Below are positions 581-49,949 of a stretch of 52,320 nt of DNA, piece by piece; within the stretch, counting starts at the first letter, position 1, and the number at the start of each line of letters is the position of its first letter. The DNA is from a virus (taxonomy: Duplodnaviria > Caudoviricetes), in the IMG/VR virus record IMGVR_UViG_3300011336_000270, positions 1-52,320 of that record; one strand, 5' to 3'. Made by a program: the position numbers and the translations under genes. The notes beneath the pieces were generated by a model that saw only the letters and a program-made list of their open reading frames with translations, did not search any database and was not told the origin of the DNA.

Positions 581-803
581 TCCACACACGCAAACGGGAT
601 TCCGTCCTATCCGGCTTCCCTTTGCGCTAATCGCCCCGCATTCGCGTTTTCTCCACTCTTCCGCGCCTTTATCCTTCCCTTGATTCTTTCCGCGCTAGTT
701 TCCTACTTTATTGTTACCGATACCGCCTACACTTCCCTCCACTCCGCTTTCGACACTCTGCTTCTCCCTAGAGCGTAAACCAAAAACCAATAGAACAAAC
801 CAC

Positions 804-1124
804 ATGAAAACCACAAACCACGCACCGGAACCTTGGACGATTCGCCGCCTCTCAAAATGGCATGATGGCACTCCACAAGAATTTGACCTACTAGAAGTAG
901 TGTCAAGACAGGGATACCAATTAGCCATAACCCATGACTGTAAACCGAAAGCCGTGGCTACAGCAAATCTGATCGCCGCCGCGCCTGATCTGCTTTCTGC
1001 TTTGCGGGAAGCCTACAACGCAATTGCTTGGGATATTCCCGGCGGGAACTTGTCCGATGCGGATTCGGAGGCTCTACTTGATACCATTCGCGCCGCAATC
1101 GCTAAAGCGGAGGGTGTAGCCTAA
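804..1124 (+). CDS. Hypothetical phage protein (HxPxPW...ANxxLIAAAPDLL family)
   Basis: HAPEPW and ANLIAAAPDLLSAL motifs, common in small early phage proteins; ATG 804 follows an A/C-rich leader. Confidence 0.75.
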   Translation: MKTTNHAPEPWTIRRLSKWHDGTPQEFDLLEVVSRQGYQLAITHDCKPKAVATANLIAAAPDLLSALREAYNAIAWDIPGGNLSDADSEALLDTIRAAIAKAEGVA

Positions 1125-1134
1125 CCTAGCTTTT

Positions 1135-1156
1135 CGGGGGAGTCCGACCCTCCCCT
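1135..1156. terminator. Hairpin between convergent genes
   Basis: GGGGGAG...CTCCCC stem flanked by T-rich sequence between stops at 1124 and 1159. Confidence 0.45.
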
Positions 1157-1158
1157 GT

Positions 1159-1809
1159 TTAGCCTTCTGATATGGCTTCTTTTTCCTCGCTTGGGGTTGC
1201 CGTCACAGCCTGCACTTCCTCCATGGTAACATCAAGAGTAACATTGCGCGGTTCGTCCTTCGGCGGAGGCATCACATGAAGGGAGACCATTGCGTTTAAT
1301 GAAATCGCCCGTTCGTCCATGTCTTTGCCATTCAAGCCGTAGCTCTTTTCGGCGGCGTCGATGTATTGCTGGAAGAGTGTCATCATGCTCCGCAAATCCT
1401 GCACTTTACCCGTCACCTTATGCTCAAGAATAGCCTTCCGCATCTTCTCAAGTTGCTCAAAAGTAAAGACATGATGCTCCTCGATTCCGCTTGTCCGCCT
1501 TTCTGCTATGCTCCGATCCACATTCCCCTTGGCAATGATCTGCACCTCTTCCGCTTTCTGGTGCAATCCAAATTTCGCACTCTTATTTTTCAAGTAGGCA
1601 TAGCTCATTCCCTCAAACTCAGGCATTTCCAGAATTTCTTTGTTCGTCTTTCCGCTGAGGATCAGCTTCTCAATCAAGGGCCAGTCCCACTTCACGGGCC
1701 GGGGTGGAGGCGGGATCATATTCCGCGCTTGCTTTTTCTTGGTAACATTGCGAGCAACCTTGGGAGTAACATTGCTACTCTCACTTGTCTTTTCGGGTTC
1801 TTTAGCCAT
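1159..1809 (-). CDS. Putative terminase small subunit / HTH DNA-binding protein
   Basis: N-terminal HTH-like segment (WDWPLIEKLILSGKTNKEILEMPEFEGMSYAYLKNK) followed by a helical oligomerisation-like region; size fits TerS; function is inferred. Confidence 0.45.
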   Translation of the reverse strand: MAKEPEKTSESSNVTPKVARNVTKKKQARNMIPPPPRPVKWDWPLIEKLILSGKTNKEILEMPEFEGMSYAYLKNKSAKFGLHQKAEEVQIIAKGNVDRSIAERRTSGIEEHHVFTFEQLEKMRKAILEHKVTGKVQDLRSMMTLFQQYIDAAEKSYGLNGKDMDERAISLNAMVSLHVMPPPKDEPRNVTLDVTMEEVQAVTATPSEEKEAISEG

Positions 1810-1929
1810 GATTTGAGGCTAAATCGTCCACAAAATTTTGTCAATTTTTATCCTTTCCCCAGAGCAAAAAAGAAAAAACCAAAAACCAAAAACAGCAGTA
1901 AAATCAATAAACAAATATAGACAAAACAT

Positions 1930-2085
1930 ATGAGTGATACAGAAAAATCGTTCCAAACCTGCCTACCTCCAGAAGCGTATCTTCGGATTTGCAGGGCCGC
2001 AAATAATGTCGTCGAGCCTAAATTCCGCTCGTCCTACTACCCGAAAAAGGCTGAGGTTCAAACCAAGAAAGCACCCCAAAAATGA
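1930..2085 (+). CDS. Hypothetical protein (51 aa)
   Basis: MSDTEKSFQTCLPPEAYLRICR...; its stop overlaps the next start (ATGA 2082-2085). Confidence 0.6.
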   Translation: MSDTEKSFQTCLPPEAYLRICRAANNVVEPKFRSSYYPKKAEVQTKKAPQK

Positions 2086-2267
2086 GGACTTTTATGCTCC
2101 ACAAACAGCCTCCGATCTTTCGCGTGAAGGAGACTCCAGTCTCAATAAGAGAGACCAAACGGGAGATTATCCAAGCCCTCCAGGCAGTCTGCGACGCCTA
2201 TCGCGGAACGGACTCGCTTCTACTCCTCCAATGCCAATCCGCGCTTAGAAAGGCAAAGAACCTATGA
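2082..2267 (+). CDS. Hypothetical protein
   Basis: ATGA-coupled at both ends in an operon with the helicase. Confidence 0.65.
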   Translation: MRTFMLHKQPPIFRVKETPVSIRETKREIIQALQAVCDAYRGTDSLLLLQCQSALRKAKNL

Positions 2268-3895
2268 TCTCGAAACTAATGGATACGCTAGAGTGGAGTC
2301 ACCCCATGCAGTTGAACACCAAGCGCGGCCCTCGACTCTTGAAGAAGTCACCAATAGGTAAAGCCTTCTGGTCTGTCTACAGGGAATCTCCTGATAAGTA
2401 CAAAGAATTCTTCCGCGAGGTTGGCATGTCCATGACCAAGTTCCGCGATGAGTGGGAACTGGCTTGGTGGTCTGATGATCAGTTAAAGTTCAAGCCGATA
2501 CCTACAGACAAACCCGCCGATGTAGAACCAGAACTAGACTTGTCGGACTTGCCTCCACTTCTCCACCCAGAGGGTTTGCTGGAATACCAGTTGACCAGCG
2601 TCCAGATGGGAGTTCGCTCCATGCAGAAATACAATCGGGTTCTGCTCGGTCACTCTACTGGTGTCGGAAAGACCTTCTGTGCTTTGGGTATAGCTAGAGA
2701 GTTAGGCAAGAAGGTTGCGGTCATCTGTCCTAAACCTATCGTTACCGATTGGCATCGCGCCGCGAAGATGATGGGTGTAGAGACCTATGAAGTCTGTGGC
2801 TGGGAGTGGACGAAGACAGGTAAGAGTAAGATGGGCAGATGGACGGATGATAAGAAGAAACAATTCCGCTTCATGCTCCCAGACGATTGCCTGTTGGTCT
2901 TTGATGAAGTTCACAGAGGTAAGGCACCGGGGACAAGTCAGAATGCTTTCCTAGTCCGAGATGCGGTAGTCCAGAATGTCCCTAGCATTGCATTATCGGC
3001 AACGATAGCGGATGATCCCACAAAACTCTGGGCTATTGGGCAGTTCCTCGGTCTGCATCAGGGAGAAAAGGACTACTTCCGCTTCATACAAAATCACGGA
3101 TGCAGAAAAACCAGATTCGGTTTCCAGTATCATGGATCGGATTCTGTCCTCAAGAAACTCCATCACAAAATATATCCAGATCGCGGGAATCGTCTCCGTC
3201 ACTCCGATCTCGGTGATGCCTTTCCCGAAACTCTAATCCATGCCCGTGCATTCGATATGGATTCGGCGCGGGAGATTGCCAATGAATACGAAGAACTCTG
3301 CAACCGAATTGAAGAACTACGGATGCAAGAGAACTTCGCAATTAACGCTCTTGCAGAACAGACAAGGGCGAGACAAAGAATTGAACTTATGAAATGCGGG
3401 GCTGTAGCTTCACTAACAAGAGATTATCTTGAAGAAGGATGCTCCGTATTTATAGCTGTGAATTTCACGGAGAGCAGAGATTTTTTAATGAAAGAATTAA
3501 AAACAGAATGTTCTATCCATGGCGGTCAAAATGAAATGGAAAGGCGTGGTCACATTGACTCTTTTCAAAATGATAAAAGCCATATTATTATTGGACAAGT
3601 TCAAGCCTGCAGGGAGGGACTAAATCTGCATGACATAAAAGGAAATAGACCTCGCGTTGCTTTAATTATGCCTACGCCTAGCATTTACGACACCAAGCAG
3701 GTATTAGGCAGAGTTCATCGTGCAGGAGGAAAAAGCAAAAGCATTCAATATTTAGTGTATGCGGCTGGCGTCACAATTGAAGAGAATATCTGTTCAAAAC
3801 TAGATGAGAAACTGAAAAGACTCGATTTGCTTAACGATGGTGAAACCGATCCCACAATATCATTACTTCCGAATGAAGAGAAAGAATTGACATAA
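2264..3895 (+). CDS. Superfamily 2 (SNF2/DEAH-like) helicase
   Basis: Walker A HSTGVGKT, motif II DEVH, motif III SAT, motif V EGLNL, motif VI QVLGRVHRAG. Confidence 0.92.
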   Translation: MISKLMDTLEWSHPMQLNTKRGPRLLKKSPIGKAFWSVYRESPDKYKEFFREVGMSMTKFRDEWELAWWSDDQLKFKPIPTDKPADVEPELDLSDLPPLLHPEGLLEYQLTSVQMGVRSMQKYNRVLLGHSTGVGKTFCALGIARELGKKVAVICPKPIVTDWHRAAKMMGVETYEVCGWEWTKTGKSKMGRWTDDKKKQFRFMLPDDCLLVFDEVHRGKAPGTSQNAFLVRDAVVQNVPSIALSATIADDPTKLWAIGQFLGLHQGEKDYFRFIQNHGCRKTRFGFQYHGSDSVLKKLHHKIYPDRGNRLRHSDLGDAFPETLIHARAFDMDSAREIANEYEELCNRIEELRMQENFAINALAEQTRARQRIELMKCGAVASLTRDYLEEGCSVFIAVNFTESRDFLMKELKTECSIHGGQNEMERRGHIDSFQNDKSHIIIGQVQACREGLNLHDIKGNRPRVALIMPTPSIYDTKQVLGRVHRAGGKSKSIQYLVYAAGVTIEENICSKLDEKLKRLDLLNDGETDPTISLLPNEEKELT

Positions 3896-3914
3896 TAGAA
3901 ATCGAATTTATCTT
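3887..3914 (+). promoter_or_regulatory. Sigma-70-like promoter for the leader RNA and HNH gene
   Basis: TTGACA (3887-3892), 16 bp spacer, TATCTT (3909-3914). Confidence 0.5.
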
Positions 3915-3921
3915 ATGGTAA

Positions 3922-4047
3922 ATCGGAGTGAAACCCCGATAACCGTAAGATTAAATTTGAAATGCTAATACAATATCATCCCTTGCATGGTAAAGGTTTC
4001 ACCTGTCATTCAGACAGTCTTACGGCCATGTGAGGGATGTCCTTTTT
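3922..4047 (+). ncRNA. Structured leader RNA, copy 1 (attenuator / C4-antisense-like architecture)
   Basis: Hairpin 3922-3940; long stem 3977-3990/4026-4039 plus U-tract; enclosed GGTTTCAC and TCTTACGG are complementary to upstream GTGAAACC and CCGTAAGA. Confidence 0.65.
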
Positions 4048-4050
4048 ATT

Positions 4051-4908
4051 ATGAGCAAATACGGAAACTTGAAGCGGGGAGATACGAGAGAAGACGGAAT
4101 GATTTTTTGGGCTTACACAGATGGAAAAGAAAGATGGGTGACAAGTGGCAAGTTCGATGAACTAAGGCAAAAAATTTCCGATAATTTCAAGAGAGAATTA
4201 CCTGAAAAAAAGTTTAAGCGCGGGGATCGACGCGAAGATGGGAAAATATTTTGGGCATACAGAAAAACATATAAAAACTTTGAGTGCTGGATGAGTGAGG
4301 ATGCCTACAATAAAGAACTAAATAGGTCTATGGTTTATCTTGCTAATCGTAAATTCAAGAAGCCAAAAATTAAAGTTGGTTTCATGAGGCAAGATGGACT
4401 TGTTTATATGGGATATTATAAAGGATGCAAAAATGGACAGAGATGGGTATCGCCTGAAAAATATGAGTCAAAGAAAAGAAAAGAAAGAAATAGATTTGCT
4501 ACATTATATCACAGCAACGAAGAGTTTAAAAAGAAAGTAAAAGAAAATTCTAAAAATGTTTCAAAAAAACGAATGGCTATTGATCCGCTTTTTAAATTAA
4601 AGGTTCATTGCCGATCAATGATTTCAACTGCTTTTAGTAGAAAAAATTTTACAAAGAGAAGCAAAACGCAAAACATAGTTGGTTGTTCTTTTGAAGAACT
4701 AAAAAGACACATTGAATCTCAATTTAAATCAGGGATGAATTGGGAGAATCACGGAGAATGGCACATCGACCACATAATGCCGCTTTCAATGGCAAAAACC
4801 GAAGATGAGATGATAAGATTGAATCACTATAGAAATCTTAGACCTATTTGGGCCAAAGAAAATTTAGTAAAAGGACATAAGCAAATAAACGATCTTGTTT
4901 TGTTTTAA
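4051..4908 (+). CDS. Free-standing HNH homing endonuclease with three N-terminal GDxREDG repeats
   Basis: C-terminal GCSFEELKRHIESQF...WHIDHIMPLS...LNHYRNLRPIWAKENLVKG HNH motif; AT-rich; ATG 4051 preferred. Confidence 0.88.
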   Translation: MSKYGNLKRGDTREDGMIFWAYTDGKERWVTSGKFDELRQKISDNFKRELPEKKFKRGDRREDGKIFWAYRKTYKNFECWMSEDAYNKELNRSMVYLANRKFKKPKIKVGFMRQDGLVYMGYYKGCKNGQRWVSPEKYESKKRKERNRFATLYHSNEEFKKKVKENSKNVSKKRMAIDPLFKLKVHCRSMISTAFSRKNFTKRSKTQNIVGCSFEELKRHIESQFKSGMNWENHGEWHIDHIMPLSMAKTEDEMIRLNHYRNLRPIWAKENLVKGHKQINDLVLF

Positions 4909-5224: not shown

Positions 5225-6175
5225 TTATTCTCCTCTCAAAAATTGAATCCACTCGTTTTCCGCTGCATCGAACCAGCTTTTGCCTTGCAGGTCGATCAGT
5301 AATTGGTGCGATTCCACCTCATTCGGAACTTGGGTGACGATCTCCGAATTCATCCAGTTCTCGACATTTAGGATCAAAAAGCGGTGAGGCATGGGTTTCT
5401 GCTTCTCTTCTTTGCCTTGGGCTTCCCGCACTTTGCCGCGAACCTCTTGGCTGGATAGCTTCTCGGTCTTCGCCGCTTCGACTAGCTGGGCCTTCTTATT
5501 CTCTGAAAGGTCAGCATTGCCGATCTCACGATAGACCGTGAATGGTAGCATCGCATCACGCTGGGCAGCAGGGAAGGCTTTACAGGCGCGAGCGTAGCCA
5601 GAGACCGTGCTATAAGACTTCTTGAACTGGGCGCACAACTGATTAACTACATCTTCATGCCCAGCATTCTCTAGCGCGACCACCGAATCACCGATGATCC
5701 ATTGGCTACCAGACTCAAGAGTAAGACCGAAAGCGAAGGCTTTCACCCAGTCCTGCATGGATACATCTCCCTTTGGAACGCATTGCGTCATGCCTGCGCC
5801 GAGGTCGAACTTCTGCGTGAAGCTCGAAAGCTCGAGGCCTTGGCTGACACTCTGCACTAGTTCAAGTTTCTCTTTAGATTCTTCTGAGACTTGAGTATCG
5901 GTAACGATAACGGGAGTTTTGTCCGAAGCCAACTCGGAAGCTGATTCAAGATCATACGCCATCTTCTCGTAGAGTTCCGCGACTTCATCAGCCACATTGT
6001 CTTCGATATACTGGTTCTTCTTTACCTTGTCCCAGACCTTCTTGATAAGAGTCTCGGTCATCGTGATGCCCTTCCACTCTTGTTGAGCAAAGGTTAACAT
6101 CTGTTTGAGGTAGGTTGCTTCGTTTACGAGTTGTCCCTCATGGAGAGGGCTGAATAGTTCTAGTTTATTTTTCAT
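5225..6175 (-). CDS. ParB/KorB/LmbU-like HTH DNA-binding protein
   Basis: SQWIIGD...KSYSTVSGYARACKAFPAAQRDAMLPFTVYREIG...QLVEAAKTEKLSSQEVRGKVR resembles the LmbU-family WxxGD...YxTxxxYA...F...R...LxF pattern and the ParB LSxxEV helix. Confidence 0.6.
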   Translation of the reverse strand: MKNKLELFSPLHEGQLVNEATYLKQMLTFAQQEWKGITMTETLIKKVWDKVKKNQYIEDNVADEVAELYEKMAYDLESASELASDKTPVIVTDTQVSEESKEKLELVQSVSQGLELSSFTQKFDLGAGMTQCVPKGDVSMQDWVKAFAFGLTLESGSQWIIGDSVVALENAGHEDVVNQLCAQFKKSYSTVSGYARACKAFPAAQRDAMLPFTVYREIGNADLSENKKAQLVEAAKTEKLSSQEVRGKVREAQGKEEKQKPMPHRFLILNVENWMNSEIVTQVPNEVESHQLLIDLQGKSWFDAAENEWIQFLRGE

Positions 6176-9130: not shown

Positions 9131-9714
9131 TTTGATTCCTCCAAACTTTTTGCCTTTTGAATCGCGTCAGCGGCTTGGCGCATGGCATCAATCGACCACG
9201 ACTCACCGGATTGCCCGAGTCCGTAAGCGACAAGATCATTCAGCTCGCGGCAAATTTTCCTCGCCTCGTCGCGCTCAACCTCAGCTCGTGCAGCCATTTC
9301 GACAGCGCATCGCCATTTATTATCCCAGCCAATTGCCTCCCTTTCATCGGCAAGAACTTGCCGAGCATCTGTCAGGAGTTTCCGCAATACGGGAACGCAC
9401 CCACAATGCCGTTCGTCGGGATGGGCGGCTTCAACATGAGCCGCTGCATTCTCCCAATCCTCCAAAGCCTCCCGCGCCTCGTCGCGTTCGCGGATCGCCT
9501 TTTCTTTTTCAGAAACAGCTTTCTCCGCGCCTATATTTTCTGCAATTGATCTGTATTCTTCTAATTCTTTCAGAGCCTCGTCGCGCTCGCGTTCAAATCG
9601 ACGACAGATGTCAGTAGGCACCCACGCCTTACTCCCGCAAACCGATTGGAATTTTACGGAAAACGCATCCGTCTCTGGTGTGGGTCGATCGCTCATTTTT
9701 AGACTGTCGTTCAT
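9127..9714 (-). CDS. Hypothetical protein with a TPETDA motif and ERDEA coiled-coil repeats
   Basis: RPTPETDA plus repeated ERDEA; paralogous modules at 47925 and 48601. Confidence 0.75.
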   Translation of the reverse strand: MNDSLKMSDRPTPETDAFSVKFQSVCGSKAWVPTDICRRFERERDEALKELEEYRSIAENIGAEKAVSEKEKAIRERDEAREALEDWENAAAHVEAAHPDERHCGCVPVLRKLLTDARQVLADEREAIGWDNKWRCAVEMAARAEVERDEARKICRELNDLVAYGLGQSGESWSIDAMRQAADAIQKAKSLEESK

Positions 9715-9908
9715 TTCGTTTCCCAAACTGAGGTTATGATCTCGCTCACACCGCGAAGGTGCTTGGCGATTTCGAGTGCTTGGTTTGCATCACGGAGTTC
9801 TCCTCGGTTGAATTGACCTTGGACTGCGACTGCCTCGATCAAGCGAAGGTAAACTTCTTCTTGGATGGAGGCCGATTTGACTGCTGGTTTTGTTGGTTCT
9901 TTGCTCAT
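9711..9908 (-). CDS. Hypothetical protein, first gene of the leftward recombination operon
   Basis: ATG 9908 lies downstream of a TTGACC -35 hexamer (9947-9942). Confidence 0.65.
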   Translation of the reverse strand: MSKEPTKPAVKSASIQEEVYLRLIEAVAVQGQFNRGELRDANQALEIAKHLRGVSEIITSVWETK

Positions 9909-10087
9909 GGCGGATGGCATAAGACAACAAATCTGTTGCGCGGTCAATAGTTTTTTTAAAGAAAATTATCGGTAACGATAAAAAGAAAAGGGAGCCAATT
10001 TCTCAGCCCCCTTTTCAGACACATGATAACCAGAAACCGCAGCGAGTCCGCTTTGGTAGAGCCAGACTACATCAGCCTCTGCGGGTG

Positions 10088-37113: not shown

Positions 37114-37491
37114 TCACTTCTTAAAAAAGCTATTTAATGTTTGCCTGCGTCTTTGGCAGCTACTACATCCTTTGGCTCGTTGCTCTAATTTTGTTCCTGC
37201 TATCCTGTCAACTACTCTTGCTACTCCATGAATAGCTTGTGCAACATGATCTCCTGCTCCCATCCAGCATCTATCCGATGGTTGGCGCTCGCAGATTTGG
37301 GTTTCGATTGCATCGGCAAGATCAGCTGGCGCAGTAACCCCGTTTGATCTCATATCTTTGATCGTATTCTCGATTAGGCGCGTCAATGATTCTCCATATA
37401 CAGTTGCTGGAAATTCCAGGTTGTTGCGGGTGATCGTGTATTTATAATAAAACCCGCCTACAGGAGCGCGTCGAGGTTCTTTAAGTTTCAT
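37114..37491 (-). CDS. Hypothetical Cys-containing protein (PxGGxxY N-terminus, C-terminal GCxxCxxR)
   Basis: ATG 37491; divergent from terL across a 37-bp gap. Confidence 0.7.
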   Translation of the reverse strand: MKLKEPRRAPVGGFYYKYTITRNNLEFPATVYGESLTRLIENTIKDMRSNGVTAPADLADAIETQICERQPSDRCWMGAGDHVAQAIHGVARVVDRIAGTKLEQRAKGCSSCQRRRQTLNSFFKK

Positions 37492-37528
37492 CTTGCCTTG
37501 CGCGTGAAGATGGGGTTTCATCCTTCCC

Positions 37529-39598: not shown

Positions 39599-39916
39599 TT
39601 ATTTGAATTGATAAACTAGGTAGCCTTGCTCTTTCGCCCACGCTGGGTTGTCATGCACTCGCTGGTGGTCTTCTCGACAAAGAGCCATGAAAGTGCGCTT
39701 CTCACAAAGGTTTTTCCCTCGTCCGCTTTTGTGGTGTATGTCGGTTGCTTCTCTACCGCAGATTTCACATCTGTAATCTTTTTCTTCAAGATACTCTCTC
39801 CTTACCCTACTGTATTCAATGCTTCGCTTTTTGAGTCTGGCTGAAACTGGGTTGAGCTTTCCTCCTCTTTTCTTGAATCCGCTTTTTGCCTTAAGTGGAG
39901 TTTTGCGTCTGAGCAT
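39599..39916 (-). CDS. Small HNH nuclease with zinc finger
   Basis: CEICG...DIHHKSGRGKN...MALCREDHQRVH. Confidence 0.8.
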   Translation of the reverse strand: MLRRKTPLKAKSGFKKRGGKLNPVSARLKKRSIEYSRVRREYLEEKDYRCEICGREATDIHHKSGRGKNLCEKRTFMALCREDHQRVHDNPAWAKEQGYLVYQFK

Positions 39917-40155
39917 AATTCAATAATTTTACCGATCTGTTCTTTCTTGAGAACCGACTTTGCTGATGTTTCGATTTGATTGATAAGGCTACCAGTCACT
40001 CCGATCTTGTCACCTAGTTCACGCACGGAAAACCCAAGGCGCAAACGAGCATCACGCAAGTGTGCGCCAAACATCTTTCTAGCATTATGCTTGATGCTTC
40101 TGCTATGTTCAATAGCCGATAGGTAGCTATTGTATGCGACTTCTAACTGATGCAT
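39802..40155 (-). CDS. XRE-family HTH transcriptional regulator
   Basis: FGAHLRDARLRLGFSVRELGDKIGVTGSLINQIET. Confidence 0.85.
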   Translation of the reverse strand: MHQLEVAYNSYLSAIEHSRSIKHNARKMFGAHLRDARLRLGFSVRELGDKIGVTGSLINQIETSAKSVLKKEQIGKIIELCSDAKLHLRQKADSRKEEESSTQFQPDSKSEALNTVG

Positions 40156-40163: not shown

Positions 40164-40208
40164 AGTATAGACAAACATATTGACAGGTCAATCTTTTTTT
40201 TGTAGTAT
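40164..40208. promoter_or_regulatory. Overlapping divergent sigma-70-like promoters
   Basis: Plus strand: TTGACA(40180)-17-TAGTAT(40203). Minus strand: TTGACC(40191)-16-TATACT(40169). The two -35 boxes form the near-palindrome ATTGACAGGTCAAT. Confidence 0.7.
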
Positions 40209-40216: not shown

Positions 40217-40612
40217 ATGGATAACCACAACAGCAACATAGATTTGGACATGACAGCATTCAAGTTTCTTGAGCTTGCTCGAAAGTCCGTTCTGATAACA
40301 AATATGTCTCTCGCTGAAGCGATGGGACAAGGAATCTTTTCGACTCACGAAGTCTTCAATGGCGATGGAGGCTATATGATTATGGGAGTCCGGCCAAACT
40401 CTACCGCGCTCGCAGCGACCTACTCTGGCAAACGAATACTCTGGTCTGAACTCGCCCTAATCAAAGACGAAGACCTAGAACTCCATCACAAGCTCCATGC
40501 TGTAGACTGCCAAGATGACCATATGTCTGATCTCACTTGGACAAACCTCGTCGATCAAATCGAAGAATGGGTGAAGTGCGAGCGTGAGGAGATTGACCTA
40601 GATTATCGGTAA
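40217..40612 (+). CDS. Hypothetical protein
   Basis: ATG 40217 lies 8 nt after the -10 box. Confidence 0.7.
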   Translation: MDNHNSNIDLDMTAFKFLELARKSVLITNMSLAEAMGQGIFSTHEVFNGDGGYMIMGVRPNSTALAATYSGKRILWSELALIKDEDLELHHKLHAVDCQDDHMSDLTWTNLVDQIEEWVKCEREEIDLDYR

Positions 40613-40619
40613 CAATAAA

Positions 40620-41384
40620 ATGAAAATACAATTACACCACGGTGATTGCTTGGAAGAGATGAGGAACATTCCTGATGGAAGTATAGATATGGTTCTGTGC
40701 GATCCACCGTATGGGACGACCGCCTGCAAGTGGGATTCGGTGATTCCGTTTGAACCGCTGTGGGCGCATTACAAGCGCATTGCCAAGAAGAACGCGGCCA
40801 TTGTCCTCACGGCGAGTCAGCCGTTCACAAGTGCGCTGGTGATGTCGAATCTGAAGATGTTCAAGCATGAGTGGATTTGGATTAAAAATCGTGGATCAAA
40901 CTTTGCAAACACAGTGCGCGAGCCGATGAAGGAGCATGAATCCGTGCTGGTGTTCGCTGAAAAGAAGTGGACATACAACAAGCAGATGCAGGAGCGCACG
41001 GGCGGTGGTGCTGACCGCGTGAAATACGGGGTGGCCTTCCGCTCGCAGTCAGACAACTACCGCGAGTTTGAGGGGAGAGACCATCAAAAACTCCCAGAAA
41101 TGCGGGTTCCGTCATCGTGGCAGAAGTTCAACTGCGAAGTCGGACTGCACCCCACGCAAAAGCCCGTTGCTCTGATGGAATATCTTATCCGCACATACAC
41201 CAACGAAGGAGAGACAATAATGGATAATGCTATGGGTAGCGGCACAACAGGCGTAGCCTGTGTGAATACTGGTAGGAATTTCATTGGAATTGAGAAAGAT
41301 AAAACATATTTTGATATTGCAACCAAAAGGATAAACGATCACAAGTCTCAAATTGAATTATGCCTAAACCAATCGAAGGTCTAA
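40620..41384 (+). CDS. DNA methyltransferase (N6A/N4C, beta class), copy 1
   Basis: GDCLE, DPPY, HPTQKP and MGSGTTG motifs. Confidence 0.93.
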   Translation: MKIQLHHGDCLEEMRNIPDGSIDMVLCDPPYGTTACKWDSVIPFEPLWAHYKRIAKKNAAIVLTASQPFTSALVMSNLKMFKHEWIWIKNRGSNFANTVREPMKEHESVLVFAEKKWTYNKQMQERTGGGADRVKYGVAFRSQSDNYREFEGRDHQKLPEMRVPSSWQKFNCEVGLHPTQKPVALMEYLIRTYTNEGETIMDNAMGSGTTGVACVNTGRNFIGIEKDKTYFDIATKRINDHKSQIELCLNQSKV

Positions 41385-41497
41385 TACCACCGGGAGGACA
41401 TCACTACATGGAGAGTGATGTTAAAATTACTGGCAGTAGTTATAAAAACCGACTAGAACAAAAGCCTTGCAAGGAATTGAAAAAATGGAATATGTAG
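41360..41497 (+). pseudogene. Probable truncated gene remnant between the two methyltransferases (45 aa)
   Basis: MPKPIEGLIPPGGHHYMESDVKITGSSYKNRLE shares a PxGGxxY...GxS pattern with the N-terminus of 37114..37491, then runs into AT-rich sequence. Confidence 0.4.
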
Positions 41498-41511
41498 ATT
41501 TTTCAGAATAA

Positions 41512-42282
41512 ATGAATATAGATTTAATCCATGGAGATTGCTTGGAGAAGATGCGAGATATTCCAGACGGTAGCATTGATATGATTCTATGCGATTTGCC
41601 TTACGGAACGACCGCCTGCAAATGGGACAGCGTGATACCCTTCGAGCCGCTTTGGGAGCACTACCGTCGAGTCTGCAAGCGCAATGCTGCGATTGTGCTA
41701 ACCGCATCGCAGCCGTTCACATCTGCTCTTGTGATGAGTAACGCCAAAGCATTCCGCCACGAATGGATATGGAAGAAAGACAAAGGTGGAAACATTGCGT
41801 CGCTAAAACATCAACCCTCGAAAGTTCACGAAACCATTTTGGTGTTCGGGTTTGAGCCTTCTAGATATAAACCACAGATGGAAGTCAGACCGGAGTCCAA
41901 CAGGCGAAATAATGCGCCAAGAACAAACCATGTCGGCGTGCAAGGCGAGAAACCTTTTAGAGTGGAGCACAGTCGCGGAGCAGACGCGGTGAAGTACCCG
42001 ACGAGTGTGAAGGAATATAATAGCGTGCGCGGTGGAGTCCACCCTACCCAAAAGCCAGTCGCCCTAATGGAGTATCTAATCCGAACTTACACCAACGAAG
42101 GCGAGACGGTGCTTGACAATACTATGGGCAGCGGGACGACTGGCGTAGCTTGCGTGAACACCAATCGCAACTTTATAGGGATCGAAATGGACAAAACATA
42201 TTTTGAGATAGCCAAAAAAAGAATACAGCAAGCTAAAGAAAATTTAGGGCTGTTTATCGGTAACGATAAAAATAATTATTGA
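41512..42282 (+). CDS. DNA methyltransferase (N6A/N4C, beta class), copy 2
   Basis: GDCLE, DLPY, HPTQKP and MGSGTTG motifs. Confidence 0.93.
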   Translation: MNIDLIHGDCLEKMRDIPDGSIDMILCDLPYGTTACKWDSVIPFEPLWEHYRRVCKRNAAIVLTASQPFTSALVMSNAKAFRHEWIWKKDKGGNIASLKHQPSKVHETILVFGFEPSRYKPQMEVRPESNRRNNAPRTNHVGVQGEKPFRVEHSRGADAVKYPTSVKEYNSVRGGVHPTQKPVALMEYLIRTYTNEGETVLDNTMGSGTTGVACVNTNRNFIGIEMDKTYFEIAKKRIQQAKENLGLFIGNDKNNY

Positions 42283-43529: not shown

Positions 43530-44804
43530 ATGAAACCAAAACTAGTCCGCAAATGGGAAGAACTCCCTCCTGAGAAATCAGTCCCAATCCGTAGCAATAC
43601 CGAACAAGCTGCCTTGTCTCTTATGATTCAAGACAACGAAATACTTTCGACCCAGAAGTGGGATGCCTCGTATTTCGCCATAGAGAACCATAGATTGATT
43701 TTTGAAGCACTCCAAGGGTTCCATAGCCGAAATGGCATCTGCGACGAATTTACGCTCATTTCAGAGCTTGAGAACAGAGGAACACTTTCTCACATCGGAG
43801 GAGATCATGTAATCCATGACATCCTAAAGTGTATGAATATTCCATCTGGTAAGGTTTGCCAAGACATCGCCAATGACTACAGGAAGGAACTTCGTGAGGC
43901 TAAAATCTACCGCGATCTGATTCAGAAATGGGAAACTATGGAGAGGGACATCCGTAGAGGAAGCGCGGAGATAAACGAATTATCGTTAACGATAGAATCT
44001 ATTTCACACGATGGATCTGCCGCAAAAAGAACCAAGAAGGATATGCTCAACCAGATCATCGACGAGATGGAAGGCAAGAGTAAGCAGGAGTGCTTTGGAA
44101 CTGGATTGTTTAAACTGGATCGTACTCTGAAAGGTGGAATGCACCGAGGAGAACTAATGACAGTAGCCGCTGAAACTGGTGGTGGAAAATCCATTCTACT
44201 AGTCCAATCTGCTGTAGCAAATCTACTAGATGGAAAATCAGTTCTCTTCTTCTCGCTAGAGATGTCTGGAGAAGATGTGTTTAGGCGTATGGCAGCAAAT
44301 ATGGCTGGTGTTCCAATCCGAGAAATGGAAGAATATAAATCAGAATACGGAAGAGAACTCCCTAAAGTTTCCAATGCCATCGGAGAACTTCTTAAGATGA
44401 ATATTTCTGTAGTTGATTGCCTTTATGACATTGATGAAATTGAATCTGAAATCTCAAGAGCAGTATCAAGCAAAGAGGCAGATGTGATTATTGTCGATTA
44501 TCTTCAAATCATCAATATGCCAGAGAATGACAATAGAGAGAATGCAATTTCCGAGGCAGCTAGAAGGCTGAAGAACGCAGCAGGAAAGAATAAATCAGTT
44601 ATCCTGACAGCTTCACAACTTAATGATGATGGAAAACTGCGTGAATCTAGGGCTATTGGTATGCATTCTGACCAAGTTGTGCATATCGAACACCTCAAAG
44701 AAAAGAGCAGAATAGTAGTGAAAAAGAACCGCCGTGGCCCAAGAAACTACATTATTGATGTAAAAATGAACGGTGAACTATCTAAACTGGAGGAAGTCTG
44801 GTGA
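43530..44804 (+). CDS. dnaB: DnaB-like replicative helicase
   Basis: AAETGGGKS, FSLEM, IVDYLQ, SQLN, LRESRAI and KNRRGP motifs. Confidence 0.93.
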   Translation: MKPKLVRKWEELPPEKSVPIRSNTEQAALSLMIQDNEILSTQKWDASYFAIENHRLIFEALQGFHSRNGICDEFTLISELENRGTLSHIGGDHVIHDILKCMNIPSGKVCQDIANDYRKELREAKIYRDLIQKWETMERDIRRGSAEINELSLTIESISHDGSAAKRTKKDMLNQIIDEMEGKSKQECFGTGLFKLDRTLKGGMHRGELMTVAAETGGGKSILLVQSAVANLLDGKSVLFFSLEMSGEDVFRRMAANMAGVPIREMEEYKSEYGRELPKVSNAIGELLKMNISVVDCLYDIDEIESEISRAVSSKEADVIIVDYLQIINMPENDNRENAISEAARRLKNAAGKNKSVILTASQLNDDGKLRESRAIGMHSDQVVHIEHLKEKSRIVVKKNRRGPRNYIIDVKMNGELSKLEEVW

Positions 44805-44995: not shown

Positions 44996-45321
44996 ACTCC
45001 AGAACTAAAGGAGCAGTCGGCGAAAGAGAATGGCGTGACCAACTTCGCAATGAAGGATTCACCGCCCGTCGAGGTCAGCAATTTGCAGGAGGGCCAGATT
45101 CCCCAGATGTTATCTGCGAGGAATTGTCTGGACTCCACATGGAGGTAAAGCGAGTGCAGAACCTCAACCTTGACAAAGCCTGCGAACAAGCAGAAAGAGA
45201 CTCTCGCGGTAAACCATACATCGTGGCGCACCGCAAAAACAACAAGAAGTGGAAGGTTACAATGCCATCTGACCTTTTCTTCTCACTACTTCGCGATGGC
45301 ATGGAAGCGTTAAAGAAATGA
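44992..45321 (+). CDS. Holliday-junction resolvase-like PD-(D/E)xK nuclease
   Basis: KGAVGERE...SPDVI...MEVKR motifs. Confidence 0.8.
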   Translation: MNSRTKGAVGEREWRDQLRNEGFTARRGQQFAGGPDSPDVICEELSGLHMEVKRVQNLNLDKACEQAERDSRGKPYIVAHRKNNKKWKVTMPSDLFFSLLRDGMEALKK

Positions 45322-45560
45322 AAGCAAAACCCGCAACTGGCAAAGCGTCAGTTAAAATAGTAAAAAACCCAAAGACTGGAAGAACCCGCAAAGTTTCTTA
45401 CGGCCAAAAAGGAGCAAATGTTGATCCGGGTAGCAAGCGTGGTGATTCCTACTGCGCCCGTTCTGCTAAAATCAAAGGAAACTGGAAGTCCGATCCTAAT
45501 AGTCCGAATAACCTATCCCGTAAGAAGTGGAAGTGCCGTGGAAGTAAATCCATGAAATGA
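45318..45560 (+). CDS. Small basic protein (SYCARS...RKKWKC family)
   Basis: Motif frequent in aquatic phages; coupled ORF. Confidence 0.75.
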   Translation: MKAKPATGKASVKIVKNPKTGRTRKVSYGQKGANVDPGSKRGDSYCARSAKIKGNWKSDPNSPNNLSRKKWKCRGSKSMK

Positions 45561-46105
45561 TCTATTCCAAGATCGCGCCTTTACCTACGCACAAATATGT
45601 CTTGGTGGATTCCAACTTCACACACAAAACTCCCTGTGGATTTATTGAAGCCATGTGGGTCGGAGTCACAAGCATCCCCGGAAGAGCATGGGGAATCAAT
45701 GTCATTCTGCGCGATGGTGGTGCTTTATATCGCAACCTCCCTCCTCATAGCATTTCATTTGGTAAAAATGTTTGTATGGCATGGGGCATTCAGAATGCTC
45801 AACTGTGGGACTGCTACTCCTACCACTTCACAATCGTCCAAAGCTCAATCCTGCGAGGTCTGCGGATGCGAGCTAAAGTCAAAGGAGAACTCCTAGCGGG
45901 AGAATACTTATTCCATGTAACCCATCTAAATGATGGGTGGTCAGACTCCCCAGACCAAGATAAAGAGTTTTACTTTATCAAGTTAGACAATGGCAGGATA
46001 ACAATCCAGCCTACGAATAGAATCACATTTATAGATTCCAGCTTTATCGTTAACGATAAACTCCCAGAACTTAAATTGAGCGAAACCATATATTCCTGCG
46101 AATGA
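45557..46105 (+). CDS. Hypothetical protein
   Basis: Coupled ORF; GALYRNLP...QLWDCYS...QPTNRI. Confidence 0.75.
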
Positions 46106-47214
46106 ATCACCGTTACCACATCCTAGGCATTCCACACACAGTTTCGAGCAAGACATATAACGCCTGCGCCTATACTCAGAAGGTAGTCAAATTCGGTAAG
46201 ATGATGACTGAGCGCGGCCATGAAGTCTTGCACTACGGCCACGAAGACTCCAATCTACCATGCACAGAACATATCACAGTCTTAACTAACGAAGACTTTG
46301 AAAAAAGCTACGGAACGCATGACTGGAAGAGTAAATTCTTCAAGTTCAATACTGGAGACCATGCCTACCAAACATTCTATAAGAATGCCATCGAGGAGGT
46401 AGGAAAACGAAAGCTCAAGAACGATTTTATACTACCATTCTGGGGTAGTGGAGTGAGGCCAATCTGTGACGCGCATCCAGATATGATCTGCGTTGAGCCG
46501 GGAATTGGGTATGCTGGAGGACATTGGGCGAGGTGGAAAATATTTGAATCATACGCAATCTACCATGCCTACTGCGGACTCAAGAATGTAGGGAACTGTA
46601 ACCAAGATTGGTATGAAACAGTCATCCCAAACTACTTCGATGTAGATGACTTCGAGTACTGCGATCAGAAAGAAGATTACTTCTTGTATCTTGGCCGAGT
46701 TTACAGCGGGAAAGGAGTAGATGTAGCTATCCAAGCCACAGAGAGAGCGGGAAAAAAGCTAGTCATCGCAGGCCAAAAAGAGGATGGTTACAAGCTGCCA
46801 GACCATGTGGAGTATGTCGGATACGCCGATGTGCCGACTAGGAAGAAGCTCATGGCTAAAGCCAAAGCTAGCTTCCTTCCATCCATGTATGTAGAGCCAT
46901 TCGGTGGAGTGCAGATCGAAAACCTTCTATCTGGGACTCCAACAATAACCACAGACTGGGGTAGCTTCACGGAGAATAATATCCACGGAAAGACAGGATA
47001 CAGATGCCGCACGATGGGAGACTTCGTAGATGCCATCAATAACATTGACCAGATCAAGCCATACGATTGCAGAATGTTTGGAGAGAACTTCAGCCTAGAG
47101 AAAGTGGCTCCGATGTATGAGAAGTATTTCGAGGATGTCCTAGATGTATACCAAGGAAAAGGGTGGTACGCTAAAGGAAATGGTCTGTTTGCTCTAGAGA
47201 AATATTATCCATAA
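46102..47214 (+). CDS. Glycosyltransferase family 4 (GT-B)
   Basis: [10 protein letters not shown] and [23 protein letters not shown] (EX7E) motifs. Confidence 0.88.
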
Positions 47215-47282: not shown

Positions 47283-47468
47283 ATGCTTAATAAGATAAAT
47301 TCAGAATACCCAAAGTGGGCTTGTCAAGAATGCGGAAAGAAGAACGGGAAGAAACAAAAAGAAGTATCATGCTGGCATTACGGAAAGTGTGATGTCTGCC
47401 AAACAAATAAAAGTGTTACCGAGGTAAGAGATTTCGGGCATTTTCCAAACTGGTTCAAATCTAAATAA
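47283..47468 (+). CDS. Small zinc-finger protein
   Basis: CQECG...CDVC. Confidence 0.7.
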   Translation: MLNKINSEYPKWACQECGKKNGKKQKEVSCWHYGKCDVCQTNKSVTEVRDFGHFPNWFKSK

Positions 47469-47710
47469 TGTGTCCAAAATGCAAATCAAAAAAAATAGGA
47501 GTCTACGATTCGAGAAAGAACGGAAAACATGGAGGGTCAGTATGGAGGCGCAGGCATTGCCTAAAATGTTTCCATAACTGGTCAACAGTAGAAATAAACC
47601 AAGAACACTATGATGAATTGACAAGGCAGGCCAATTTACTAGAAACACTCAGAACCCTTGAAAACACAGCTTCAAGTATTATCGGAAAAGTTAAGGGAAT
47701 TCTTCCCTAA
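47468..47710 (+). CDS. NrdR-like N-terminal zinc-ribbon protein
   Basis: CPKC...VYDSR...RRRHCLKC...WSTVE; lacks the ATP-cone. Confidence 0.8.
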   Translation: MCPKCKSKKIGVYDSRKNGKHGGSVWRRRHCLKCFHNWSTVEINQEHYDELTRQANLLETLRTLENTASSIIGKVKGILP

Positions 47711-47924: not shown

Positions 47925-48281
47925 ATGAACAAACGACCTACACCAGAAACGGATGCGTTACGCAAATCAATCGATAGCGGAGCGAATGCCGAAGCGGAGA
48001 TGAATTCATTTGCTCGCAAGTTAGAGCGTGAGCGAGACAAGGCACGGGAGGAGTTGAAAAAATGCAGAGAGGATTCTATACGGGATGGCGTTTCGGTGGA
48101 TGCACTTGTTCTGCTGATTCGTCTATGGAAAAGCCGTGAGAAAAAATATCGTAACGCAGTAAGGACGGAGTGGGAAACCGGAGACAAATACGCAAGCCGA
48201 AGATACGAGGGCGAATCCATAGGAACTCGCTGGGCAATCAATGACTTGGAAAAACTTATATCTGAGGAGGAAGCCAAATGA
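47925..48281 (+). CDS. Hypothetical protein with TPETDA / ERERD motifs
   Basis: RPTPETDA...FARKLERERDKAR. Confidence 0.75.
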   Translation: MNKRPTPETDALRKSIDSGANAEAEMNSFARKLERERDKAREELKKCREDSIRDGVSVDALVLLIRLWKSREKKYRNAVRTEWETGDKYASRRYEGESIGTRWAINDLEKLISEEEAK

Positions 48282-48303
48282 TTGAATTACCAACACAACT
48301 GTT

Positions 48304-48561
48304 ATGAACACCACCACTGAATACAAAGACGCAGACGAAGCATGGGAAGCCGGTCAAGAATGGATCAAGACCTCTAGTACGTATGAGAAGATGGACTACA
48401 TGAAAGAGACTTGCACTGAGTATTTCTTCAAAGAATGTCGTCTTCTTGACGAGATGGCTCGCTGGATGACTCAAGAGGATTTCAATGAGTTCTTTAAACA
48501 TCTCTGCAGTAACGGGATGATTAAAACTCCGCAGGAGTTGGACTACGACATGAATAATTGA
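48304..48561 (+). CDS. Hypothetical acidic protein
   Basis: ORF with AACTGTTATGAACA start context. Confidence 0.7.
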   Translation: MNTTTEYKDADEAWEAGQEWIKTSSTYEKMDYMKETCTEYFFKECRLLDEMARWMTQEDFNEFFKHLCSNGMIKTPQELDYDMNN

Positions 48562-48600
48562 TTGACCTGTCCACCACTAGTCCCGAGAATAATAACTGTT

Positions 48601-49020
48601 ATGAACAACTACGCAAACACAATCGTCAACGACAGAGATCAATTAGCCTACGCATTGGCGAATGCTTTGAAAGAGCGCGACGAGGCGCTGGAGGCGGCTG
48701 CAAAGTGGGAATCGTCATTCGACGCCATGGAACGCGCAGGAGCAGAACAAGCCCGCCGTGCTGATGAGAACCGCGAATGGGCACTAAGGGCAGAGCGCGA
48801 GCACGATGAGGCGATTGCCGATCGTGACATTTTACGCATTGATGCTCAACGCGAAGCTGAACATCACGACCGCATGGTTGGGGAGCTTGAGAGAGTATAT
48901 CAGGAGCGCGACGAGGCGAGGCAGGCGTTTAGTGAACTATGGCAATATGCAGACGCGTTATTGCCGGAAATTGACGAGGAAACATTAAACCGATGGAACA
49001 AATGCATAAAACTATACTAG
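48601..49020 (+). CDS. Hypothetical coiled-coil protein with ERDEA repeats
   Basis: ERDEAL, EREHDEA and ERDEAR; same start context as 48304. Confidence 0.7.
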   Translation: MNNYANTIVNDRDQLAYALANALKERDEALEAAAKWESSFDAMERAGAEQARRADENREWALRAEREHDEAIADRDILRIDAQREAEHHDRMVGELERVYQERDEARQAFSELWQYADALLPEIDEETLNRWNKCIKLY

Positions 49021-49283
49021 AGCTGGCCGCAGAGGCAGTAACAGGAGACCGCAAGAGGGATTACGGATCCCCTGAGGAAAACCACGAGCGGATATCCATT
49101 TTATGGAATGCCTATATTTCATGCCGCGACAAAGATCTAGGCGAGCCGATCACGGCATTAGATGTTGCTAATATGATGATTTTGCTCAAAATCGCGCGAT
49201 CCTGCAAGACCCCTACGAAGGACACATATGTTGATATTGCTGGGTATGCCCAATGCGCGGCAGAGATCTCAGGGCTAGAATGA
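48993..49283 (+). CDS. DUF6378-like phage protein
   Basis: ILELAAEAVTGDRKRDYGSPEENHERI...LLKIAR...DTYVDIAGYA. Confidence 0.8.
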   Translation: MEQMHKTILELAAEAVTGDRKRDYGSPEENHERISILWNAYISCRDKDLGEPITALDVANMMILLKIARSCKTPTKDTYVDIAGYAQCAAEISGLE

Positions 49284-49447
49284 ACACCCTGAAAGACTAC
49301 ATCACCTCCAGAAAGCTAAACGAAACCAAAATACTAAACATTCTGCAAGATCACGGAATCATATCTGATGAATGCGTAACCTCTTCTGAGGTAGGAGACT
49401 CAGGAAAAGCCGTGTCTTGGATAGAACTAAACGAAGAAAAACTATGA
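49280..49447 (+). CDS. Hypothetical protein
   Basis: ATGA-coupled. Confidence 0.65.
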   Translation: MNTLKDYITSRKLNETKILNILQDHGIISDECVTSSEVGDSGKAVSWIELNEEKL

Positions 49448-49746
49448 CATACGAACAACTAGAAGAAAAAGTAATCCAATGGGCAAAAGACCGAAGAATC
49501 ATACCAAACGCAACACCAACCGCCCAGCTACTCAAATTCTTCTCTGAAGCAGGAGAACTATCAGATGCAGAAGCGAAAAGAGATATGCCAGAAATCATAG
49601 ACGCAGTAGGTGATATACAGGTCTGCCTAATCAACTATTGCGAGTTATTAGGCATCAAGATGACAGACTGCCTAGAGTCAGCATACAACCAAATCAAAGA
49701 CCGCCGAGGAACATTAACACCAGAGGGTATATTCATAAAAGAATGA
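49444..49746 (+). CDS. MazG-like nucleotide pyrophosphohydrolase
   Basis: WAKDR...QLLKFFSEAGEL...IIDAVGD...AYNQIKDRRG. Confidence 0.82.
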   Translation: MTYEQLEEKVIQWAKDRRIIPNATPTAQLLKFFSEAGELSDAEAKRDMPEIIDAVGDIQVCLINYCELLGIKMTDCLESAYNQIKDRRGTLTPEGIFIKE

Positions 49747-49949
49747 AAGACGAAATGGAAAAAAAATACAAAGAGCATAGCGAGATGCTAAGTAGAATAG
49801 CTTCATTTGTAGATGACTGGGCGAGGAATGAAAACGATAGCACACTATTGTGTGTGCTTCGTGCAGTCCAGCAAGCCCACTTCTCTAAGGCAGAAATGCT
49901 GCAAAAATACATAGAGATGGAAGAAGAATTATCGTTAACGATAAAATGA
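49743..49949 (+). CDS. Hypothetical protein
   Basis: ATGA-coupled at both ends. Confidence 0.6.
   Translation: MKDEMEKKYKEHSEMLSRIASFVDDWARNENDSTLLCVLRAVQQAHFSKAEMLQKYIEMEEELSLTIK

Follow-up and report, generated by a model that had tools for sequence, protein, structure and literature searches.

A dispersed palindromic repeat, predicted to be a multi-site operator, in the genomes of a freshwater phage lineage

The window analyzed here is IMG/VR virus record IMGVR_UViG_3300011336_000270 at its full length of 52,320 bp. It holds a phage genome that is whole or nearly so (CheckV completeness 99%, 46% G+C, zero N), and its subject is a short palindrome, TATCGTTAACGATA, which recurs with its variants throughout this genome and those of its relatives. 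The genes lie in two blocks. The minus-strand block runs from about 37530 down to 4968 and carries tail-fibre, tailspike, endolysin and virion-protein genes. The plus-strand block, from 40217 onward together with 1-4908, carries an O-like initiator, a DnaB-like helicase, RusA, a glycosyltransferase, MazG, dCMP deaminase and a helicase. PHROGs and Pfam, from which these assignments come, gave family names for part of the window genes only. Among the 72 open reading frames (ORFs) of the window they detected no integrase, recombinase, RNA polymerase or ParA family; an XRE protein is encoded alongside this absence of an integrase family. No tRNA genes were found in the window.

For comparison we used 15 near-complete genomes, namely the window and 14 relatives (G001 and G005-G017). 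By tblastn, 26 of the 72 window ORFs were matched in all 14 relatives. The sites of the window are listed below without strand, with lengths in nucleotides (nt) and amino acids (aa). Ortholog groups were built from masked flanks, and "relatives aligned" refers to five relatives.

19869-19882: perfect copy, 18-bp dyad, touching the ATG (19868) of core gene 18897-19868 on the minus strand; ortholog in 14 of 15 genomes, 0-6 nt ahead of the start; conserved in 4 of the 5 relatives aligned
22408-22421: perfect copy within gene 20606-22612 (668 aa; peptide IVND), 205 nt past its start; kept in 5 of the 5 relatives aligned and in 14 of 15 genomes
25795-25808: perfect copy in a gap, 5 nt ahead of the ATG of tailspike-like gene 24218-25789; ortholog group of 12 genomes with gaps of 5-8 nt
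27534-27547: perfect copy beginning 4 nt past the probable ATG (27554, read from an ATGA overlap) of a small gene (LSLTI); 3-genome group
29615-29628: perfect copy touching the stop codon of 29629-30240; next start 241 nt off; conserved in G001
33419-33432: perfect copy, 18-bp dyad, within gene 32343-33635 (IVND); 3-genome group
37098-37111: perfect copy, 16-bp dyad, filling the gap from the stop of 37114-37530 to the ATG of 36381-37097; 12-genome group
43981-43994: perfect copy within the DnaB-like helicase gene (LSLTI); 15 of 15 genomes
46045-46058: perfect copy, 18-bp dyad, near the end of 45557-46105, with the glycosyltransferase start 43 nt on; 3-genome group
49930-49943: perfect copy, 16-bp dyad, 2 nt ahead of the dCMP deaminase ATG (49946-50338); 10-genome group
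40604-40617: variant TATCGGTAACAATA, at the end of the cro-position gene and 2 nt ahead of the first methyltransferase ATG; left edge of the methyltransferase cassette
42255-42268: TATCGGTAACGATA, right edge of the same cassette; one ortholog group with 40604, present in 15 of 15 genomes
14924-14937: TATCGGTAACGATA within the 1977-aa virion protein gene; 10-genome group
13607-13620: TATCGTTTCCGATA within the 1977-aa protein gene; no spanning alignment in the five relatives
9967-9980: TATCGGTAACGATA in a gap, 19 nt ahead of the start of 9711-9947; conserved in G001, and matching a site group found in 12 other genomes
5896-5909: TATCGGTAACGATA within the gene of the ParB-fold candidate described below; 3-genome group
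2994-3007: TATCGGCAACGATA within helicase gene 2264-3895; identical in G001, absent in G005; 6-genome group
28155-28168: TATCGGTTCCGATA within tail-fibre-like gene 28018-29373; identical in G003
709-722: weak variant TATTGTTACCGATA, of doubtful function; no spanning alignment in the five relatives
2737-2750: weak variant TATCGTTACCGATT; lost in G001 and G005
31511-31524: weak variant CATCGTTAACGACA; not a motif in G005

Each of the 21 positions at which an earlier note had placed a copy holds the sequence reported there, and the in-gene peptides that it gave (IVND, LSLTI, IVTD and IGND) were confirmed. Its gene names fared unevenly. DnaB (43530-44804) agrees with PHROGs and Pfam, but no family was found for 20606-22612, 32343-33635 or 27330-27563, the genes called nozzle, scaffold and lipoprotein. 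Directly upstream of the site at 9967, in the direction of the minus strand, lies a strong 14-pair G+C-rich hairpin with a T run (9985-10016, minus strand). It follows the 1977-aa gene and by its sequence looks like an intrinsic terminator.

The perfect palindrome occurs 10 times in the window and 0 times in each of 100 dinucleotide shuffles. Five of these 10 copies, those marked as dyads in the list, extend to 16-18 bp, as the earlier note had said of several. Four more sites read TATCGGTAACGATA and seven are variants. The pattern TATCG-N4-CGATA is matched by 17 window sites, where 0.06 would be expected. At two or fewer mismatches from the consensus there are 20 sites against about 0.17 expected (uniform composition, our own arithmetic). 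The 3-mismatch class is at chance level, with 2 seen (28155 and 48621) and about 1.9 expected; the site at 28155 has both arms intact and is kept in one relative. The weak variants at 2737 and 31511, which aligned relatives do not keep as motifs, are probably chance or decayed copies and not working sites. The widest site-free gap is 4945 bp, in agreement with the earlier limit of about 5 kb. When synonymous codons were shuffled within genes 300 times, a mean of 6.1 of the 16 sites with a K-W-W-M center (see below) remained (maximum 8), which is about the number of sites in DNA that the shuffle left unaltered. The repeat is thus enriched over codon-preserving shuffles.

TATCG-N4-CGATA was present in all 22 related virus records, at 4-32 copies each, while a reversed-pattern control gave 0-1. 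There were 15-32 copies in the 14 other near-complete genomes, 15-23 in five partial records (75-84% completeness) and 4-6 in each of three short fragments (16-22% completeness). A further relative of 51.8 kb (CAYGZP010000003.1) is one contig of a metagenome-assembled genome (MAG) labeled Candidatus Woesearchaeota. All 20 K-W-W-M copies of this MAG are on the phage contig, with 0 in the remaining ~750 kb. The placement of the contig in this MAG is probably a binning artefact and not a host link. The exact 14-mer was found on at least 177 IMG/VR stretches, and 125 of the 177 listed have flanks homologous to this phage group. The repeat is therefore a real, robust and lineage-wide trait.

To define the site, we pooled 301 sites from the 15 near-complete genomes and obtained the consensus T-TATCG-K-W-W-M-CGATA-A. 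The arms of these pooled sites are fixed by the search pattern, so arm conservation was measured separately in flank-based alignments. T is preferred at -1 (78%) and A at +1, whereas -2 is almost never C and +2 almost never G. There are 15 kinds of center, and 285 of the 301 sites obey K-W-W-M, a rule that a random 4-mer fits in 6% of cases (our own arithmetic). K-W-W-M is its own reverse complement, which suggests that the duplex is read as two identical T-TATCG-K half-sites with an A/T center between them. This symmetric rule fits a dimer reading double-stranded DNA better than an RNA loop. In G001, three copies read TCTCGTTAACGATA, an arm change without a compensating partner, which indicates that sequence matters and not pairing. 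The earlier description of constant arms around a variable center, as for a dimeric site, is thus retained and sharpened to a strand-symmetric center.

We grouped the sites into 81 orthologous groups, of which 13 are present in at least 10 genomes. The center differs among orthologs in 26 of the 35 groups that span at least three genomes. Within genes, the arms are more conserved than the flanks: 1.0 versus 0.75 in DnaB (15 sequences), 1.0 versus 0.79 at 22408 in the 668-aa gene (15) and 0.99 versus 0.67 in the 1977-aa gene (10). The DnaB site has the center GAAA in 12 genomes, TTAA in 2 and GTAA in 1; its arm codons are the same in 15 of 15, and the center codon alters the residue. Selection therefore acts on the DNA and not on the protein, as the earlier note had argued. 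Sites are gained and lost by point substitutions in coding DNA, and are also lost by small indels. Thirteen genomes have a site near the terminase region, and the window counterpart is five substitutions away from the motif. Such gain and loss shows that the repeat is not a mobile insert.

Sites are concentrated just ahead of genes. Among the 301 sites, 76 lie at -3 to 12 nt before an ORF start, compared with 2.5% of random positions, which is a ~10-fold excess. The distances peak at 0 and at 5-8 nt, and 12 of the 81 groups are start-proximal (binomial P = 7e-7). Another 180 of the 301 were classed as "other", being far from a start. Window sites are found between, partly in and wholly in called ORFs. 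Where a window gap has room, the site is nearer the start in four cases (19869, 25795, 9967 and 49930) and nearer the upstream stop in one (29615). Around the circle, the coefficient of variation of spacing is 0.45-0.72, which in 13 of the 15 genomes is lower than under random placement (P < 0.05), although these genomes are related and the tests are not independent. No conservation extends beyond 2 bases of flank, so the sites have no -35 or -10 partner, and consensus scans for promoters near the sites were at chance level. The role of the repeat is not classical promoter control.

We favor the reading that the repeat is a multi-site operator, predicted to serve a phage-encoded dimeric DNA-binding protein, and we give it a probability of about 0.5. 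Occupancy of the sites by a protein is what we infer from their pattern. In this reading about 15-30 double-stranded DNA sites per genome would be bound by one sequence-specific protein as a symmetric dimer, each subunit reading a T-TATCG-K half-site across the A/T center. The binder would probably be encoded by the phage core genome, as either a 316-aa ParB-fold protein or an XRE helix-turn-helix (HTH) protein. Its sites would be kept at roughly even intervals, in intergenic gaps just ahead of the next start codon where such gaps are present, and elsewhere would be written into coding DNA through point substitutions. The purpose may be genome-wide control or organization of the phage DNA. Binding could repress genes or form a roadblock at gene starts, as at KorB operators or stoperators, or it could coat and compact the DNA. 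The earlier note's proposal of a protein that coats or loops the whole genome for silencing, segregation, protection or packaging is a conjecture. The two candidate genes are as follows.

5225-6175, minus strand: candidate binder 1, a 316-aa core protein in which a ParB-type HTH DNA-binding domain is modeled at residues ~100-255
39805-40155, minus strand: candidate binder 2, a core XRE (Cro/C1-type) HTH protein at divergent early promoters, with Pfam HTH_31 and HTH_3

The 316-aa protein is present in 14 of 14 relatives, and 41 of 66 columns are invariant in residues 135-200. Its AlphaFold2 model has a pLDDT of 77.7. In Foldseek, ParB, Spo0J or Noc chains made up 12 of the first 13 rows listed (probability up to 0.98, E 0.08-0.3). 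In VIA-align, the ParB domain on parS ranked first (Z 7.4, 112 residues, root-mean-square deviation 3.7), followed among others by Spo0J (Z 6.9), SopB (5.3) and KorB (5.2). Weaker leads came from NCBIfam (LmbU_fam_TF, E 1e-9, under its cutoff), from an ESM Atlas cluster named "DUF1016/ParB HTH" (0.93) and from a viral structure library ("ParB-like protein", rank 9). A ParB-type DNA-binding fold is a weak call from the model, with no sequence-level family match. The XRE protein is also present in 14 of 14 relatives, with 26 of 48 columns invariant in its HTH block and 4 of 44 in its tail. In both candidates conservation is thus strongest in the part expected to contact DNA. Between the XRE gene and its divergent neighbor, at 40164-40208, sigma-70-like promoters point apart, and their facing -35 boxes make up a 14-bp near-palindrome, ATTGACARGTCAAT, that is conserved in 15 of 15 genomes.

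Several observations weigh against the operator reading, and those on the proteins come first. No Foldseek match of the 316-aa protein reaches E 0.001. The Z of 7.4 is middling for helical models according to the tool, and the Rubisco accumulation factor Raf1 scores equal. The protein has no Pfam or PDB sequence match, and no ParBc match was obtained in Pfam at E 10 in 24 members. The N-terminal (CTP-binding) domain of ParB was not seen, residues 1-92 having matched unrelated helical chains only. The C-terminal 62 residues (five strands, pLDDT 87.9) match nothing by Foldseek at E below 1. As for the XRE protein, the motif is absent from the 61-65-bp promoter gap of its gene in all 15 genomes. 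The near-palindrome in these promoters may be its real operator, or merely two facing -35 boxes. Searches of IMG/VR, a 5.8-billion-protein set and a 1.84-billion representative set returned, for both candidates, homologues from this clade or generic HTH matches. The two candidates seem to us about equally likely, and the binder could instead be another phage protein or one of the host.

A KorB-like SH3 dimerization domain was sought at the C-terminus of the 316-aa protein, and Foldseek found none below E 1. Other proteins were rejected as the common binder because some or all of the 14 relatives lack them: the O-like initiator is present in 9, the endonuclease-VII-like proteins in 5 and 6, the NrdR-type zinc ribbon in 2 and the methyltransferases in 0. 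The NrdR-type ribbon is a stand-alone 80-aa protein encoded at 47468-47710 on the plus strand (Pfam E 8.6e-12), without the ATP-cone.

Start-proximity and weak hairpin potential also fit an RNA-level role, and this too counts against an operator. The motif would act in mRNA as a start-codon hairpin of 5-7 pairs with a 4-base loop, serving a translational repressor, a processing enzyme or translational coupling, and would set the expression of the downstream gene. We consider this unlikely. The 76 start-proximal sites (12 of the 81 groups), at 0-12 nt ahead of starts, occupy the position of a ribosome-binding site, and window sites in roomy gaps are nearer the start in four cases against one. 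Copies lie 0-5 nt ahead of five window genes, all of which lack a Shine-Dalgarno-like sequence; overall, just 10 of 67 window genes have one. There is also a precedent in the start-associated sequences of Cluster K, as far as the available text of PMC3203893 describes them. However, most sites (180 of 301) are far from a start, and such sites are conserved equally strictly; an RNA loop has no reason to be strand-symmetric as K-W-W-M is, and the arm variants are uncompensated. The folding energy of -3.2 to -5.3 kcal/mol allows a hairpin, but a weak one.

The centers show a sense-strand bias that would suit RNA and that a purely symmetric DNA site does not predict. GAAA was counted 51 times against 9 for TTTC, and TAAC 28 times against 1 for GTTA. 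However, this bias is hard to interpret because orthologous sites are counted repeatedly, the coding strand is A-rich and the center pairs are inconsistent. One pair goes in the opposite direction (TTAC 33 and GTAA 20, again raw counts that repeat orthologous sites), and asymmetric centers have mixed orientation within orthologous groups. No RNA runs were among the public runs listed as holding window DNA; the labels of these runs are riverine, freshwater, lake-water, sediment and outdoor metagenomes and a coded organism.

The binder could also be a host protein, which is the last of the points against a phage-encoded one. A global regulator, a nucleoid protein or a defence component would bind the sites, and the phage would exploit or decoy it. 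We regard this as quite unlikely. A fixed host specificity would explain why the arms are invariant though the core proteins of the clade have diverged to ~60-80% identity, and the phage-encoded binders are candidates. On the other hand, the MAG, as the one cellular assembly in which a relative was found, has no copy of the motif outside the phage contig, although this contig may be mis-binned. In the searchable part of the literature the exact 14-mer was not found as a binding site, its occurrences there in two papers (human embryonic stem cells, yeast Kex1p) being judged unrelated, and six center variants did not occur at all.

The repeat may also be seen as a point of exchange. Two tandem N6/N4 DNA methyltransferase genes form a 1.65-kb cassette at 40620-42282 (plus strand), which none of the 14 relatives carries. 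The gene of the 1977-aa virion protein (10088-16021, minus strand) is detectable by tblastn in just 8 of 14 relatives. Endonuclease-VII-like genes (phrog_1035) at 4030-4908 (plus strand) and 36381-37097 (minus strand) are patchy, in 5 and 6 of 14 relatives, as homing endonucleases would be.

Under such a reading the repeats would be crossover points for module exchange, marking cassette boundaries, or targets of the phage HNH or endonuclease-VII-like nucleases. The methyltransferase cassette is flanked by two copies, and the empty site in G001 has one copy with both flanks. The 1977-aa gene is mosaic at 14924, with unlike left-flank families and a common right flank, and one endonuclease-VII-like gene begins exactly at the site at 37098. 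Of 8467 homology breakpoints, 6.7% are within 15 nt of a site, compared with 1.7% of random positions (3.8-fold). Most of this is a gene-boundary effect, however, since breakpoints within 25 nt numbered 3.3 at motif starts and 2.2 at motif-free starts. Among 119 insertions, 4 have copies at both edges as well as one at the empty site, and in 28 at least one edge carries a copy, but in 87 neither edge nor the empty site does. Flank discordance above 0.15 was found in 15.5% of 1236 motif site pairs against 13.2% of 2336 control identical 14-mers, and above 0.25 in 3.8% against 2.1%. No recombinase or integrase family was detected among the 72 ORFs, and the nuclease genes are sporadic (1 to 6 of 14 relatives) except for one HNH gene adjoining the terminase genes. 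Integron attC sites and T4-type promoter-stem-loop cassettes differ in that most of their cassettes have copies at the borders and come with a dedicated recombinase; here few insertions have such borders, and no recombinase family was detected. Any conserved 16-bp island would draw occasional crossovers, and we take those at the repeat as a by-product and not its purpose. Exchange as the function is very unlikely.

The methyltransferases raise the further question of DNA modification. The earlier note had pointed to methylation at the central GTTAAC, and 10 of the 13 GTTAAC sequences of the window do fall in the motif, with copies bounding the two methyltransferase genes. A role as a modification, restriction or nicking target is nevertheless highly improbable, and methylation is unlikely to be the point of the repeat. 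The TTAA center that gives GTTAAC is found in just 79 of the 301 clade sites, and none of the 14 motif-carrying relatives has the methyltransferase genes. Nicking at a palindrome would, we reason, yield double-strand breaks.

To place the operator reading among known systems, we compared the repeat with dispersed sites in other replicons. The sites of KorB (on RK2), ParB (parS) and Noc are 13-16-bp palindromes, conserved throughout and read by a dimeric HTH protein. Those of KorB and Noc occur all over the replicon, and many are far from promoters. The phage repeat resembles them in its short dispersed palindromes and in a core phage protein whose model suggests the same DNA-binding fold. It differs in its variable center, and its candidate has no sequence-level family match and no detected N-terminal CTP-binding domain. 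A ParA partner, which ParB partition systems have, is found in 0 of the 72 ORFs; KorB-like or Noc-like use would need none. The earlier analogy with these systems is somewhat strengthened by the ParB-type fold modeled for a core protein, but this is not backed at the sequence level. Should the ParB-fold protein be the binder, these systems would offer the closest parallel in mechanism.

Operators of the Cro/C1 (XRE) type are 14-18-bp dyads with conserved outer bases and a less constrained, A/T-preferring center. Classical ones are few and overlap promoters beside the repressor gene. The dyad architecture and a core XRE protein at a divergent early promoter pair are shared with the phage. Here, by contrast, 15-30 sites are spread genome-wide, and none is in the XRE promoter gap.

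By anatomy, the closest analogue is the 17-bp dyad repeat TGTTCGGNNNCCGAACA of Cluster O mycobacteriophages (Corndog and relatives). The available text of PMC4351075 describes more than 30 copies genome-wide, with invariant 7-bp arms and a variable 3-bp center (7-3-7). Of the 34 repeats in Corndog, 14 are intergenic, 10 are near a gene 5' end and 10 are deep in coding DNA. Its authors predicted a dimeric DNA-binding protein, gave the function as unknown, and noted that the phages encode proteins with ParB-like domains (PMC4351075). In both systems there are tens of copies with invariant inverted arms and a variable center, inside and between genes, and, as far as that text goes, no meaningful orientation, no promoter tie and no evidently temperate phages. 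The earlier suggestion of a new kind of system is therefore not upheld, and by this likeness the repeat is a variant of a known yet unexplained kind.

The two also differ in ways that the same text allows us to compare (PMC4351075). The arms here are 5-7 bp around a 4-bp K-W-W-M center, whereas the Cluster O repeat has another sequence and geometry, and its host phylum and phage lineage are different. A quarter of the sites here are at start codons and spacing is even, whereas Cluster O repeats are denser at the right end and not start-linked. Few if any repeats are at indels there, whereas a few cassettes are bounded by copies here. Narrow literature searches found no later explanation of the Cluster O repeats.

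Two other mycobacteriophage elements were compared. Cluster A stoperators, in the available texts of PMC4351075 and PMC3203893, are two to three dozen short sites, many in tiny intergenic gaps as here, and are bound by one phage protein that acts away from promoters. They are asymmetric and oriented with transcription, whereas the consensus here is its own reverse complement. They also serve the immunity repressor of temperate phages, and no integrase is found here among the 72 ORFs. The start-associated sequences of Cluster K, GGGATAGGAGCCC, are a repeated 13-bp element 3-7 bp before many start codons; they are conserved across subclusters and, in the text available, their function is given as unknown (PMC3203893). 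They are asymmetric, have a Shine-Dalgarno core, are nearly all start-linked and lie in the non-structural half of the genome only. In contrast, the repeat described here is a palindrome without the GGAG core, is present in all modules and is start-proximal in 76 of 301 cases.

A more specific form of the operator reading is possible, though we hold it to be rather doubtful. A lytic clade would use a KorB/Noc-like system that lacks the CTP-binding domain, in which a core ParB-fold dimer on ~20 even palindromes organizes the chromosome, selection having placed many of these palindromes within essential genes. It might, for example, gate blocks of genes at their starts or compact the DNA ahead of replication or packaging. 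Should the ParB-fold protein prove to bind the sites, organizers of plasmids and chromosomes would be linked to lytic phage biology. If the KorB/Noc-like form is true, the Cluster O repeats would be of the same kind, and both would belong to a widespread, unrecognized layer of phage genome organization.

The Cluster O repeats were described in 2015, and this freshwater clade is a second, independent example. To that description it adds a sharper grammar, clear evidence of sites placed in coding sequence in spite of protein drift, an even spacing and two candidate binders. The lineage is abundant: relatives of the capsid-like protein (30594-32009) are encoded on at least 215 IMG/VR contigs, the best 80 all being 83-99% identical. 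Hundreds of natural variants can thus be compared. The motif can be used as a signature for the clade in metagenomes. No similar cultured phage was found among 50,697 phage records by megablast of 12 kb or by tblastn of the 841-aa and 316-aa proteins.

Other features of the window were noted. The terminase-large-like region consists of two ORFs, 37529-38638 and 38737-39381 (plus strand), with 98 nt between them; each is conserved in all 14 relatives. The split may reflect two genuine genes, an intron or a frameshift. The product of 37117-37530 matched unnamed viral clusters only in ESM Atlas. The gene at 45318-45560 (plus strand) encodes a very basic 80-aa protein with no family. It is strongly conserved, at 64-96% identity in 12 of 14 relatives, and may bind DNA or RNA. 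The group-1 glycosyltransferase (46102-47214, plus strand) is present in 9 of 14 relatives. The protein is 72-74% identical to those of the Synechococcus myophages S-CAM7 and ACG-2014f, a similarity that may point to gene exchange with cyanophages or to a host among the cyanobacteria.

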